From Candidatus Saccharimonadales bacterium (lineage in GTDB: Bacteria > Patescibacteriota > Saccharimonadia > Saccharimonadales > UBA10212), in NCBI GenBank assembly GCA_040900005.1, contig JBBDZV010000040.1, positions 1-25,723 of the forward strand: a stretch of DNA of 25,723 nucleotides, given 5' to 3'. The stretch's first letter is position 1. Every line of letters starts with the position of its first letter. The notes beneath the pieces were generated by a model that had not been told where the DNA came from, made no database searches, and worked only from the letters and a program-made list of their open reading frames with translations. Made by a program: the position numbers and the translations under genes. Below are positions 1 to 3,160 of the stretch, piece after piece.

Positions 1-55
1 ACTTAACGTACTGCAGCTTGATATCCGGTAGCAGGTTAAACTGTACGGCGCTCAT
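1..55 (-). CDS. PilN-like type IV pilus assembly protein, N-terminal fragment (runs off the window edge)
   Basis: ATG at 55, GGAGG just upstream; translates MSAVQFNLLPDIKLQYVK; the 'FNLLP' N-terminus directly downstream of pilM is typical of PilN. Not in the supplied ORF track (too short). Confidence 0.7.
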   Translation of the reverse strand, partial: MSAVQFNLLPDIKLQYVK

Positions 56-160
56 CCCGTTAGACCTCCAAAGCACTTATGTAGGTTATCTGGTGGCTGA
101 AGCAAGCACTGACTATCAAACGTTAACCAATGGAGGGAAATTAAGTGGAGTCTAACGGGA
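55..160. mobile_element. Putative MITE-like or structured insertion, 106 bp, with terminal inverted repeats
   Basis: TCCCGTTAGACCTCCA (55-70) is the reverse complement of TGGAGTCTAACGGGA (146-160) apart from one extra base; CTCA flanks both sides (51-54, 161-164). No transposase in the window. Confidence 0.5.
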
Positions 161-161
161 C

Positions 162-1202
162 TCATTGGTTCCTCTCCGCCAGTCCCACTGCTACGGCAAA
201 GTGGTTGGACACCGCCAGTAGTTCATTTTGTTGACCGGCAGGAAAACTAACATTACGCCAGGAGTTACCGATTTCAACGTTGATGCCGAAGCGATTGGCA
301 ATATATAAGGGGAATTCCGGTAAGCTGGAGGCCCCGCCGGTTACAATAATCCGGTCTAGCTTTGTATTGGGGTAGCGGCTTTGGAAGAATTTTATTGATT
401 TCTCTACCTCTGCCATCAGGCTGTCCACGGTACCGATTATAGCGCCGTAGATTTTGCCTTCAAGCTTATCTCGGGCTACCCCGAACTTAAAAACAAACTG
501 CTGAGCCTGGGCCAACTCAATGCTTAGGTTCTGGACAGCTGCTCGGACAAATGAGCTGGAACCGATAGGAATGGCCCGGGTCAGGTGCGGCGCACCATTC
601 ATAGCTATGACCAGGTCAGTGGAAATACTGCCGACATCAAGCACTAACTGGGGCGAAATCATATCCGGCGGTATGACCGCCCGCATCAACGCCAGACTGT
701 CCGGCTCAAAGGCCAAGACGTTCAAGCCGGCGGCCTCCAGCATGTCCAGTCGGGCCTCAATGAAATCGTTAGGTACACTGGACATCAATACTTCTACCTT
801 TTTAGGATCTTTCGGGGAGTTTCCGATAACAGCCCAGTCAATTTTAGACTGGGCGACCGGTGTGGGTATAAAAGAGTCAGCTTGATAGGTAATGGTATTG
901 GCCATCTCCGGCGGGGCCATGCGGTCCATATCTATTACCGTGGTAAAAACCCGGTTAGAGGGCAAGTTTGCAACAACGTTCTTAGTGCTTATACCACTGC
1001 GTCGCACCAACTCCCTTACGGCAGCCGACACCCTGGCCCTGTCTTCTTTGGCATCGCTCAAAGTCATGTTGCCGGAAGTGGCTATTTGGCCATATTTTGC
1101 CAAAGTTTTGGGGGAGCCGGCCCCATGTAGCTGGACCACCCGGATGGCTGTACTGCCAAGGTCTAGGCCGAAAAAGTCAGATACCCCACTCAGTATGCTC
1201 AT
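162..1202 (-). CDS. pilM: Type IV pilus assembly protein PilM (actin-like ATPase fold)
   Basis: FGLDLGSTAIRVVQL N-terminal motif, AFEPDSLAL, LDVGSISTDL, IIVTGGASSLP, and C-terminal FAVAVGLA. Confidence 0.95.
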   Translation of the reverse strand: MSILSGVSDFFGLDLGSTAIRVVQLHGAGSPKTLAKYGQIATSGNMTLSDAKEDRARVSAAVRELVRRSGISTKNVVANLPSNRVFTTVIDMDRMAPPEMANTITYQADSFIPTPVAQSKIDWAVIGNSPKDPKKVEVLMSSVPNDFIEARLDMLEAAGLNVLAFEPDSLALMRAVIPPDMISPQLVLDVGSISTDLVIAMNGAPHLTRAIPIGSSSFVRAAVQNLSIELAQAQQFVFKFGVARDKLEGKIYGAIIGTVDSLMAEVEKSIKFFQSRYPNTKLDRIIVTGGASSLPEFPLYIANRFGINVEIGNSWRNVSFPAGQQNELLAVSNHFAVAVGLAERNQ

Positions 1203-1211
1203 ATTGTTCCG

Positions 1212-1220
1212 ATTATAGCA
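1212..1220 (-). promoter_or_regulatory. Extended -10 promoter element (TGCTATAAT) for pilM
   Basis: Perfect TGnTATAAT, 9 nt upstream of the pilM ATG. Confidence 0.6.
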
Positions 1221-1277
1221 TGAGCGGCATCATTTGGTAACCTGTTCGGACATCTTTTTCAATCTGTTGAGCTAATA

Positions 1278-2396
1278 TCAAAATACTGGGGGCAGGCTAA
1301 TGATGCTCTGGACCTTTAAAGTCGGACCGGCGGGCTGGTTAAAGAAAGGCCCGCCTACCACCATGGCCGGAGTGTAATTGACTATTTCGGCAATATTATT
1401 ACTGGCTGTGGCACCGCTAAGTGAATCCTCATTGGTTGAAGCCGCACTGATGTCACCACGGGTACGCAGGAAATTAACCTGCTTGGCAATCAAGGCGCCA
1501 TTGACCGTCAGCGGGTTACCGCAGGCCGGAATAAAGTCGGTGTAAACCGGATAGGAATCGTCGCGGTGACAAGTCCAAATAGCCCCGTCATCAGCCGCCA
1601 CGATAGAGCCGGCCGGTTGGGCTATGTAAAGTCCGTCAATCCGGGTGACGGACGGGTCTATATAGATATTGCCTTTCACCACCAGTGCGAGTTTTGGCAC
1701 GTTATTCTCTCTATCCAGCTGATAAGTAATGTTATGGCCAATATAGGCATTGCCGTTCACGAACAAGGTAATCCGGCGTCCGGCGGCAATGTTTACCGCC
1801 CCGCCGGTGACATCATAAGGATTAGAGCCAGTGGCGGTGGCCGTATAAGCACCAGAGGCGGTGGCCGAAGATAACACACCCAGACCGGAAGCCGTAGTGG
1901 TAGAGAGCTTAGAGTAATAATCCGGTAAGCACGACGATTGACGGACACTGCCCTCGTAAAAACCGCCCCACGGTGCCGCGGCACTGTCGTCATTGGCAAA
2001 GCTTAGTTTATTCTTGGCGGTGTTGCTGGCGGCAGTTAGGGCTCCGGCACTGTAAAAGCCGTGGCTTGCGGCACTATTACCCTCAATAATCCCCAGTGAA
2101 AAGGCGCCGTATTGGGACGATGCTCCGCCGTTGGCGTTACCAGACCCATCCTCTTTAGAAAAAGCCAGAATACCCCCTACCCGGTTGTCCGGAGAGCCTT
2201 GGTAGTTAGGGTCCTGGTAATTAGAACCGGCGGCAGTGTTGCAGCTACTGCCATCAGAAAACCAGCCGCCGCTCATTACGTCGGCACCAAACACCTTCAA
2301 ATAGGGTTTAGTGGCCTGCACCGTGGCAATAGGCGCCAACACTAAAAGCGCACCAATCAATACCACAGGTAGTTTTTTGAGGAGTGCTACCTTCAT
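1278..2396 (-). CDS. Secreted pilus-cluster-associated hypothetical protein
   Basis: Start moved to ATG 2396 (MKVALLKKLPVVLIGALLVLAPIATVQA, signal-peptide-like). Contains PYLKVFGADV, LVVKGNIYID..V..IDGLYIA, LTVNGALIA and AEIVNY motifs that I recall from Saccharibacteria pilus-locus proteins; adjacent to pilM. Confidence 0.75.
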   Translation of the reverse strand: MKVALLKKLPVVLIGALLVLAPIATVQATKPYLKVFGADVMSGGWFSDGSSCNTAAGSNYQDPNYQGSPDNRVGGILAFSKEDGSGNANGGASSQYGAFSLGIIEGNSAASHGFYSAGALTAASNTAKNKLSFANDDSAAAPWGGFYEGSVRQSSCLPDYYSKLSTTTASGLGVLSSATASGAYTATATGSNPYDVTGGAVNIAAGRRITLFVNGNAYIGHNITYQLDRENNVPKLALVVKGNIYIDPSVTRIDGLYIAQPAGSIVAADDGAIWTCHRDDSYPVYTDFIPACGNPLTVNGALIAKQVNFLRTRGDISAASTNEDSLSGATASNNIAEIVNYTPAMVVGGPFFNQPAGPTLKVQSIISLPPVF

Positions 2397-2404
2397 ACAT
2401 AAGC

Positions 2405-2413
2405 AGTATACCA
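2405..2413 (-). promoter_or_regulatory. Extended -10 element (TGGTATACT)
   Basis: 8 nt upstream of ATG 2396. Confidence 0.55.
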
Positions 2414-2474
2414 ATTCTCACGGTTTTCTCTAGAAATTCCCCCACCACCCTAGACTGACCCTCACAAATTTGAT

Positions 2475-2500
2475 TTAATTTGTGCTATAGCATAAATTAA
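2475..2500. repeat. 26-bp near-perfect palindrome upstream of the PaaX-like gene
   Basis: TTAATTTGTGCTA|TAGCATAAATTAA, one mismatch; ends 4 nt before ATG 2505. A second inverted repeat overlaps it (CACAAATT 2463-2470 / AATTTGTG 2477-2484). Confidence 0.9.
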
Positions 2501-2504
2501 TTAC

Positions 2505-3083
2505 ATGGCGCGTAATAGTAATACTTCTGCTCTGGTAGACGGTTTGCTGCGTTTTGTAGCGACAGGTGGTATGGTGACAGCTTCCCTGCTGTTGCCAGGC
2601 TTGGCGATTGGTCTTAATAAGCCACTTAGCAAATTCTTAGATGGGCTAGATGAGGCTGCTAAGCGTCGGGAGATAGACCGTACGCTTAAATATATGAAGG
2701 CAGCAAAGCTTATTAATTACTCCGGAAAGTACGAGCATGGTATTGCTATTACCGGTAAGGGCCGGAAAAGGCTTGAGAAAGTACATTTTGAAGATATAGC
2801 TATCCTGACGCCCAAACAGTGGGATCAAAGATGGCGGCTGGTTATCTTTGATGTGCCAGAGGAGCACAAGCAAGCAAGAAACGCGCTTTCACGTAAACTT
2901 CGCGAATTAGGCTTTCAGCCCCTGCAAAGAAGTGTTTGGGTCCATCCCTTTGCTTGTCACGCCGAAATAGAAGCAATTTCTATTTTTTGGGGGCTTACAA
3001 ACTACTTAACCTACGTGGAAACCAGCTATATAGATAAACCCGACTTATTAAAATCTCGCTTTGCTAATATCTTAAAGTTCTAA
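2505..3083 (+). CDS. PaaX-like protein (wHTH plus Cas2-like central domain), CPR type
   Basis: wHTH-like region ending ITGKGRKRL, then WDQRWRLVIFDVPEE...RKLRELGFQPLQRSVWVHP, the PaaX central/Cas2-like signature. Confidence 0.85.
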   Translation: MARNSNTSALVDGLLRFVATGGMVTASLLLPGLAIGLNKPLSKFLDGLDEAAKRREIDRTLKYMKAAKLINYSGKYEHGIAITGKGRKRLEKVHFEDIAILTPKQWDQRWRLVIFDVPEEHKQARNALSRKLRELGFQPLQRSVWVHPFACHAEIEAISIFWGLTNYLTYVETSYIDKPDLLKSRFANILKF

Positions 3084-3114
3084 CTATTTTATGCTATAGC
3101 ATAAAATAGTTAGA
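3079..3114. repeat. 36-bp perfect palindrome overlapping the PaaX-like stop codon
   Basis: TCTAACTATTTTATGCTA|TAGCATAAAATAGTTAGA; its core TTTATGCTATAGCATAAA (3088-3105) matches 2479-2496 at 17/18 positions. Confidence 0.95.
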
Positions 3115-3160
3115 GTTTGTTTATTTTGTGTTGCGGGGGGAGTAGAATACGGATATTGAT

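Follow-up and report, generated by a model that had tools for sequence, protein, structure and literature searches.

A gene-less inverted-repeat element at the pilN start codon of a Saccharibacteria genome and a tiny GIY-YIG nuclease as its candidate mobilising partner

Introduction

How an inverted-repeat block of 106 nucleotides (nt) came to lie exactly between the stop codon of pilM and the start codon of pilN, and how both genes stay readable around it, is the question raised by the first lines of a 25,723-nt stretch of DNA from a Candidatus Saccharimonadales bacterium (GenBank assembly GCA_040900005.1, contig JBBDZV010000040.1; this whole stretch is called the window below). Contig C40, which opens with the window, belongs to G000, a metagenome-assembled genome (MAG) of 552 kb and 78% completeness, whose relatives are MAGs of Candidatus Saccharibacteria/Saccharimonadales. 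An earlier model-made reading of the letters (the sequence-only reading) had taken the block, positions 55-160, for a non-autonomous element, or else an RNA-level insertion, that targets ATGA gene junctions and supplies a new ribosome-binding site (RBS). Here we report that the block is a gene-less copy from a Saccharibacteria family of tiny mobile elements. Its insertion at a start codon, the duplication, the rebuilt ATG, the polymorphism in the population and the membership of the family are shown; how translation is handed on to the interrupted gene and which nuclease moves the element in trans are inferred, and we consider the account as a whole very probable.

The 106-nt element and its empty site

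The element is bounded by arms (55-65 and 150-160) that are 100% complementary over 11 nt and that extend, with one bulged C, to 15 pairs (TCCCGTTAGACCTCCA / TGGAGTCTAACGGGA), which is the 15-bp inverted repeat described in the sequence-only reading. CTCA flanks the element at 51-54 and again at 161-164, or in its longer form CTCAT at 51-55 and 161-165, as had also been read, and in silico deletion of 55-164 yields ...GAGAGGAACCAATGAGCGCC, in which the ATGA coupling of the two genes and the GGAGAGG inside the end of pilM appear as predicted. The size of 106 nt is below the 300 bp of miniature inverted-repeat transposable elements (MITEs), and the element holds merely a 37-codon mini open reading frame (mini-ORF) that has no family match. 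The coordinates of these features are collected in Table 1.

Three sediment-metagenome runs of one study (X1, X2 and X3) hold the window, and their contigs were placed on window positions 1-2500. X2 and X3 contain one contig each that joins position 50 directly to 161 and skips exactly 110 nt, that is, the 106-nt element plus one 4-nt repeat. The flanks of the two junction contigs showed 0 mismatches (over 1-50 + 161-187, and over 33-50 + 161-299), and five bases at the junction (CTCAT) are assignable to either side. X1, which is probably the source sample, carries the filled form at a depth of 7.2 versus 14.5 in the flanks, about half, and also has a loose end that matches window 40-50 exactly and stands right before 161. 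Filled and empty alleles coexist as DNA in one population, and the RNA-level explanation offered by the sequence-only reading is therefore ruled out. According to that explanation an intron-like element would be removed from the pilMN transcript to restore ATGA; exact excision would indeed give a perfect ATGA overlap, and folding into a stem brings both junctions together. The joined form, however, is present in the DNA runs, both genes are complete without splicing, and a permissive Rfam scan of window 1-1500 gave no relevant family and no intron or ribozyme match, so that hardly any credence can be given to it. The sole Rfam match, Twister-P5, lies outside the element and is at chance level (E = 5, 14.8 bits, cut-off 37.6).

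The pilM stop and pilN start form an ATGA overlap in 22 of 29 related genera, where pilN begins with MSAVQFNLLP as in the window, the codons after ATGA match those of the window (e.g. ...gggccATGAgtgccgtacaattcaacctgctg) and the motif gcggagagg precedes ATGA too. At 80 further Saccharibacteria loci, the ATGA overlap occurs in 39 and a spacer of no more than 30 nt in 27, and the element was found at none of these 80 junctions. Since the overlap is widespread in relatives, the empty site is the ancestral state. The sequence-only reading had anticipated such an empty ATGA site, and it was encountered both in the relatives and, through X2 and X3, in the same population.

A different insert of 94-130 nt lies at the pilM/pilN junction, just after the pilM stop, in about 10% of the other Saccharibacteria (loci L029 of G020, L033 of G035, L039 of G034, and L160, L165, L172, L179, L188, L211 and L227). 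In several of these inserts, tandem repeats of 6-7 nt (e.g. AGTTACA, GGTTCGA, CACTATC) make up one arm, the other arm carries the complementary repeats, and a Shine-Dalgarno (SD) sequence stands just upstream of the pilN ATG. The inserts show no relationship to the TCCCGTTAGA family, to which the 106-nt element belongs, and may represent a second class of junction-inserting palindromic element.

A repeat family with a conserved terminal stem

BLAST and nhmmer searches of G000 revealed at least seven full-length copies of the element (Table 1), in line with the sequence-only prediction of further copies with 4-bp duplications, and the host genes at the insertion sites are unrelated to one another. 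The genome also has elements of 57-79 nt with the same ends and other interiors (on contigs C1, C45, C65, C83, C94 and C106); gene-less units with these ends span 57-111 nt altogether. With the exact 10-nt ends as a search pattern (TCCCGTTAGA-N35-270-TCTAACGGGA) and the reversed pattern as control, G000 gave 7 matches versus 0. Within the taxonomic family, 26 of 49 genomes and 19 of 28 genera had the pattern, with up to 24 matches per genome, and a sample of 301 genomes from the order included 40 that had it. The control gave 0 in both sets; copy number runs from 0 to 24 between sister genera.

Alignment of 37 members of the ~105-nt subfamily revealed that the first and last 10 nt are invariant and that the stem runs four more pairs past these ends, where the sequence is variable and complementarity is kept. 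The terminal helix is 96% paired over the 37 members, versus at most 53% when the partner is slid along, and compensatory changes occur at three stem pairs, with both sides altered in 15, 6 and 16 sequences. Because the ends are invariant in non-coding copies across an order, the alignment argues for a trans-acting factor that would recognise them by reading sequence and stem together. The signal is the repeat family and its terminal stem, and overall stability is no evidence: folded as RNA, the pilM/pilN region has an ordinary energy compared with shuffles (z = 0.10), and folded as DNA it gives z = -1.8. RNAalifold found no consensus structure in the internal part of the 37 aligned members. 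An internal hairpin drawn by hand (ACG.TTGAA / TTCAA.CGT) was only 61% paired and is not claimed.

The distribution of the family bears directly on the possibility that the block is a locus-specific regulatory hairpin evolved in place, with a stem that hides the pilN RBS and is opened by ribosomes finishing pilM, giving coupling without mobility. The stem does sequester GGAGG and the ATG. That same stem is, however, the terminal repeat of a repeat family with at least seven copies at unrelated genes of G000 and members in 40 of 301 genomes of the order, and the element is missing at the same site in the same population and in 100+ relatives, which makes a hairpin of purely local origin extremely improbable; coupling survives only as a consequence of the insertion.

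Insertion at start codons

The insertion signature was derived from 70 distinct exact-end elements, taken from G000 and from loci of relatives. In 65 of the 70 (67 including two contig-end copies) the terminal A of the element and the next two bases form the ATG that opens a long ORF. Identical 4-nt flanks border 55 of 65 family members, where 1 in 256 would be expected, the clean duplications being TGAA (27), TGAG (15) and TGGA (13). Together with the empty allele that skips 110 nt, they bear out the earlier proposal that the inverted-repeat element is non-autonomous and that its target-site duplication is genuine. The base preceding the upstream copy of the duplication is A in 55 and G in 8, and in the latter cases an old GTG start therefore becomes ATG. 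Judged from these flanks, the target is a start codon, (A/G)TG, followed by two purine-rich bases (AA, AG or GA), of which the ATGA overlap of pilM and pilN is one case.

Specific targeting of ATGA overlaps was considered as well and is excluded by the GTG starts and by the TGGA duplications (13 of 55), which do not allow a stop. In only 14-18 of the 65 copies does the duplicated TGA close a long upstream ORF, so that about a quarter have an ATGA stop/start overlap. The start codon, not the ATGA junction named in the sequence-only reading, is what the sites have in common. Members of the ~105-nt subfamily lie in both directions relative to the host gene (28 versus 17), as a DNA element whose ends are symmetrical should do.

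Where the flanks are not duplicated, the elements are mostly nested or in tandem. Clusters of this kind are located at G000:C83:100-350, C65:13120-13270, C106:8820-9000, C67:190-300 and C92:3190-3290, and a second family whose ends are related (CCCGATTAGAA...TTCTAATCGGGG and CCCCATTAGAGG...CCTCTAACGGGG) is present in them, the elements being inserted beside one another's termini.

A 77-nt member at G000:C94:1465-1541 lies off a start codon, between CGAA and CGAA. Its 81 nt (77+4) are inserted in frame about 8 codons into the downstream gene, near the 5' end, and an upstream ORF of 363 amino acids (aa) now terminates in the TAG of the element's terminal repeat. It resembles a tolerated intragenic copy of the kind known from Rickettsia palindromic elements.

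Translation across the element

The gene-less elements are open to translation in one particular frame. Frame 0 from the old host start is stop-free in 61 of 65 copies, compared with 14 and 0 in the other two frames, 16 when the elements are flipped and about 14 after shuffling. How the mini-ORF ends depends on element length: lengths of 1 mod 3 end it at +1, in an ATGA overlap with the rebuilt start; lengths of 0 mod 3 end it at -7, in a TAA inside TCTAACGGGA; and lengths of 2 mod 3 let it continue in frame into the host gene. Strict selection on length phase was excluded, because lengths of 0, 1 and 2 mod 3 are all present and each ends the mini-ORF in its own way. Of 65 copies, 41 have an SD-like 4-mer at 9-10 nt before the rebuilt ATG, and 20 have one at the distal end. 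The most economical reading of these counts is that copies would survive only if ribosomes from the old start cross the hairpin and re-initiate at the rebuilt ATG.

At the pilM/pilN junction the element entered the ancestral ATGA overlap at the pilN start and duplicated the 4 nt TGAG; because it ends in A, the pilN ATG was re-created (A+TG), and the upstream TGAG copy kept the pilM TGA, leaving both genes intact. For translation we infer the following course. The old SD and old ATG would still initiate, now producing the 37-codon stop-free mini-ORF across the element. As the TGA of the mini-ORF overlaps the rebuilt ATG, ribosomes arriving there would have melted the terminal stem and could re-initiate on pilN, aided by the GGAGG of the arm. 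The sequence-only reading had the element supplying a new RBS, and a GGAGG does stand 9 nt before the rebuilt ATG; this motif is real yet probably secondary to read-through of the mini-ORF from the retained old SD and ATG, which probably matters more. Opening of the stem over the hidden RBS by ribosomes would then follow from the insertion, the mini-ORF being the likely opener.

These features were also weighed against a host-domesticated repeat (REP/BIME- or NTS-like) that is kept for mRNA processing, operon punctuation or control of DNA uptake. In Neisseria, transformation is modulated by NTS repeats together with SsnA (Chenal et al., Nat Commun 2025, PMC11893778), the element sits inside a type IV pilus/competence-like operon, and its ends are invariant across an order. 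Its presence, on the other hand, varies inside one population, the host genes at the insertion sites are unrelated, the copy number of 0 to 24 differs among sister genera, and rebuilding of the ATG and an open mini-ORF lessen the effect on the host and add no function. Domestication is improbable on this evidence.

A GIY-YIG nuclease between the same ends

Siblings of 274 nt have the same 10-15-nt ends as the gene-less copies and encode a protein. The G000 sibling (Table 1) specifies P0001, which is 93 aa from the hijacked start (86-93 aa range) and matches PF01541 with 60.6 bits over residues 8-75. Its ORF shares the reading frame of the old host start (MSPIRASMYYVYVLRS...) and ends in ...RFLALTG, with the TGA stop overlapping the rebuilt host ATG. 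One coding copy lacks an internal ATG and therefore must use the captured host start. At least seven other genera of the family, and further ones in the order, have homologues (64-76% identity) on elements of 274-276 nt that share these ends; in three genera the coding elements precede three unrelated host genes. GIY-YIG is the only protein ever found between the family ends, recurring at 271-276 nt in many genera. A genome of 0.6-0.8 Mb can contain up to 7 GIY-YIG genes, and every other GIY-YIG lineage has its own, different inverted repeats. Among solved structures, UPF0213 BH0048 (1ZG2, E = 2e-9) and EF2693 (1YWL) are the closest; the NCBIfam group I intron endonuclease model scored 19.6 bits, against a cut-off of 56. 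Searches of the 78%-complete G000 for Y1 (PF01797), DDE_Tnp_1 and rve transposase domains gave no match.

Two small GIY-YIG genes of other lineages in G000 (C97:3235-3432 and C66:986-1198) have inverted repeats of their own (CACCCCACAAACTTTC / GAAAGTTTTGAGGGGTA and TACCCCATGGAATG / CATGATTCCACGGGGTGA, respectively), and their stop codons lie at or beside the ATG of the next gene, the same design within one genome. A further small GIY-YIG gene (C11:2361-2561, locus L019) stands between a tRNA-gene-like 5' part, GGGGCATTGGCGCAGTTGG..., and a 3' part, ...GGGAGTTCGATTCTCCC...CCA, and may be an insertion in or beside a tRNA gene, the tRNA parts being judged by the look of the sequence.

We slightly favour the view that the GIY-YIG nuclease of the 274-nt siblings drives movement in trans: an Ssn-like nuclease of 86-93 aa would recognise the hairpin of the paired ends and move the gene-less copy. 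The sequence-only reading had suggested looking for a transposase with matching ends; the matching ends were recovered on the coding siblings, and the enzyme between them is a GIY-YIG nuclease, no classical transposase. The alternative is a true MITE-like element moved by another agent (an unrecognised transposase, recombination or replication by the host at hairpins, or an enzyme carried by a phage or plasmid), with the GIY-YIG elements as fellow passengers. Such an agent has room in a genome that is 78% complete. Against it stand the lack of Y1, DDE_Tnp_1 and rve in G000, the GIY-YIG protein as the sole one between these ends at 271-276 nt in many genera, the cognate repeats owned by every GIY-YIG lineage, and the recognition of such hairpins demonstrated for Ssn relatives (PMC11893778). 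We regard another mover as rather unlikely.

Several points weigh against the account preferred here, and some of them also speak for another mover. There are MITE-rich genomes lacking the cognate nuclease: G020 has 24 gene-less copies and a best GIY-YIG only 46% identical, and G013 has 7 gene-less copies and no GIY-YIG match. The 4-nt duplication is unlike the product of single-strand 'peel and paste' elements and is typical of the staggered cuts of DDE-type enzymes. Beyond the ends, the 106-nt element and the coding element have no sequence in common. The empty allele is known from assembled contigs rather than raw reads, and precise loss of the element could in principle be due to replication slippage between the 5-nt direct repeats, which needs no enzyme. 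The translation route, finally, is drawn from sequence statistics only. Gene-less copies are present in 7 of 8 genomes with the cognate nuclease and in 19 of 41 without it, an association too weak to be used as support.

Comparison with known systems

Correia/NEMIS elements of Neisseria and ERIC/IRU elements of enterobacteria are non-coding MITEs of 100-150 nt with terminal inverted repeats, short duplications and many copies, often co-transcribed with flanking genes, whose expression they can alter. The element described here is like both groups in its small size, terminal repeats, short duplications and copy number. Correia elements, however, duplicate TA and have 26-nt ends, whereas the duplications here are TGAG, TGAA or TGGA and the ends, TCCCGTTAGA, are unrelated to Correia's. 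To our knowledge, neither Correia nor ERIC targets or rebuilds start codons, and neither is linked to a GIY-YIG gene.

Rickettsia palindromic elements are selfish palindromic repeats that persist in coding regions by in-frame read-through. The present element likewise stays translatable, but nearly all of its copies sit on a start codon and would be translated as a distinct mini-ORF upstream of the gene. Free-standing GIY-YIG homing endonuclease genes (phage T4 Seg, the I-TevI family) are selfish cassettes wedged between host genes, as the GIY-YIG gene here appears to be; homing enzymes have an added DNA-binding domain and copy their genes into one cognate allele, and we know of no inverted ends, duplications or gene-less derivatives of such genes. 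IS200/IS605 insertion sequences, PATE and REP/RAYT systems are very small, have a hairpin-recognising HUH Y1 enzyme and short specific targets, and give rise to amplified gene-less palindromic derivatives; elements of the IS200/IS605 type make no target duplication and have subterminal hairpins. In G000 (78% complete), PF01797 was not found, a 4-nt duplication is present and the two ends pair with each other. Both the IS200/IS605-PATE and the REP/RAYT systems are discussed alongside Ssn nucleases (PMC11893778).

The closest published system is that of the Ssn nucleases and their hairpin repeats, and our label Ssn-like is given by analogy with it. Ssn nucleases are single-domain GIY-YIG proteins of 94 aa (cd10448) that bind the NTS/SRM hairpin in single-stranded DNA and cut beside it; in 42-71% of homologues the gene has such repeats on its flanks, and repeats without a gene number in the hundreds in intergenic DNA (PMC11893778). 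The arrangement NTS-ssnA-NTS was called insertion-sequence-like by its authors, and the published role is modulation of transformation (PMC11893778). The likeness consists in a single-domain GIY-YIG gene of about 90 aa between inverted hairpin-forming repeats, in many dispersed gene-less repeat copies and in the own cognate repeat of each nuclease lineage. In contrast to the separate, self-contained 30-nt hairpins of Ssn, one pair of ends here bounds a unit of 274 nt or 57-111 nt, and the ends pair mutually. Comparing NTS (CGTCATTCCCGCG...CGCGGGAAT) with the present ends by eye revealed only a TCCCG core in common. The Ssn paper contains no duplication, empty sites, insertion at start codons, rebuilding of ATG, use of host starts or mini-ORFs, and the words 'start codon' appear 0 times in its text (PMC11893778). 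No description of such start-codon behaviour was found in open-access papers and bioRxiv.

The 106-nt and 274-nt elements might together constitute a distinct class of prokaryotic transposon, with an Ssn-type GIY-YIG hairpin nuclease of about 90 aa as its sole protein, built to be translationally invisible and active today in environmental Saccharibacteria, a proposal that we consider evenly poised. If it holds, these elements would be among the smallest autonomous mobile units known, inserting at a start codon, rebuilding the ATG with their last base, expressing the nuclease or mini-ORF from captured signals and returning the ribosome to the host gene through ATGA. The element is in any case an example of selfish DNA that persists in a sub-megabase genome with almost no intergenic DNA, by taking the one site at which an insertion can be neutral, the start codon, and restoring translation itself. 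Mobility would give the tiny GIY-YIG/Ssn-like nucleases, a large family of which little has been characterised, a concrete and testable role, and the 'IS-like' NTS-ssnA-NTS architecture would be linked to real insertion and empty-site events. The polymorphism within the population makes the activity traceable in existing sediment metagenomes.

Locus features and further observations

Table 1. Features of the pilM/pilN junction and related elements in G000. Positions without a contig name refer to the window; the strand is given where assigned.
Feature	Position	Strand	Basis or remark
Gene-less mobile element, 106 nt, ~105-nt subfamily of the TCCCGTTAGA...TCTAACGGGA family	55..160		Copies in G000; 37-member alignment; missing from the empty-site allele
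Left terminal inverted-repeat arm	55..70		First 10 nt invariant across the family; 65-69 on the minus strand = GGAGG
Right terminal inverted-repeat arm	146..160		Stem pairing across 37 members
Downstream target-site duplication copy, TGAG	51..54	-	Its TGA = mini-ORF stop
Upstream target-site duplication copy, TGAG	161..164	-	Contains pilM stop TGA, 164-162
Rebuilt pilN start ATG	53..55	-	A = terminal base of the element; pilN reads MSAVQFNLLPDIKLQYVK
Old pilN ATG, retained	165-163	-	Direct read
SD-like GGAGG in terminal arm, 9 nt upstream of rebuilt ATG	65..69	-	Direct read
Original pilN SD GGAGAGG, inside pilM end, now before the mini-ORF	171..177	-	Direct read
37-codon mini-ORF (MSPVRLHLISLHWLTFDSQCLLQPPDNLHKCFGGLTG, then stop) from old pilN ATG (165-163), TGA overlapping rebuilt ATG	52..165	-	Translation (MSPVR...GLTG, then stop)
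pilM, 346 aa, intact	162..1202	-	PF11104 PilM_2, E = 8e-39; orthologues 55-80% identity
pilM stop TGA	164-162	-	Direct read
pilN, first 18 codons	2..55	-	Contig C40 ends here; whole gene on C10
Full-length copy	C40:55-160		BLAST/nhmmer
Full-length copy, 89% identical to the window copy, closest	C57:1929-2034		BLAST/nhmmer
Full-length copy	C20:5323-5427		BLAST/nhmmer
Full-length copy	C83:211-319		BLAST/nhmmer
Full-length copy	C52:1438-1542		BLAST/nhmmer
Full-length copy	C52:3633-end		BLAST/nhmmer
Full-length copy	C71:1527-1632		BLAST/nhmmer
Coding element, 274 nt, ends TCCCATTAGAGCCAG...CTGGCTCTAACGGGA, flanks TGAG/TGAA at start codon	G000:C50:1061-1334		Encodes the GIY-YIG protein alone

The complete pilN gene (234 aa) is located at G000:C10:1-702, contig C10 beginning exactly at the pilN ATG, and the overlap of C40 and C10 is exactly 55 nt, at the pilN start (window 1; G000:C10:1-55). 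C40 ends at this point because the assembly broke at the polymorphic element. Elements of this kind break MAG assemblies, and they create spurious small ORFs and mis-called starts in the annotation of genomes from the candidate phyla radiation.

Two other contig ends, the end of C52 and the start of C87, lie within 130 nt of a terminus of the family. Elsewhere in the window, a PaaX/Cas2-like gene (2505-3083) is bracketed by palindromes at 2464-2503 and 3081-3120 that have the core GCTATAGC in common; jointly they form a 40-nt inverted repeat that is 78% complementary, and they could be operator sites or the ends of a cassette.

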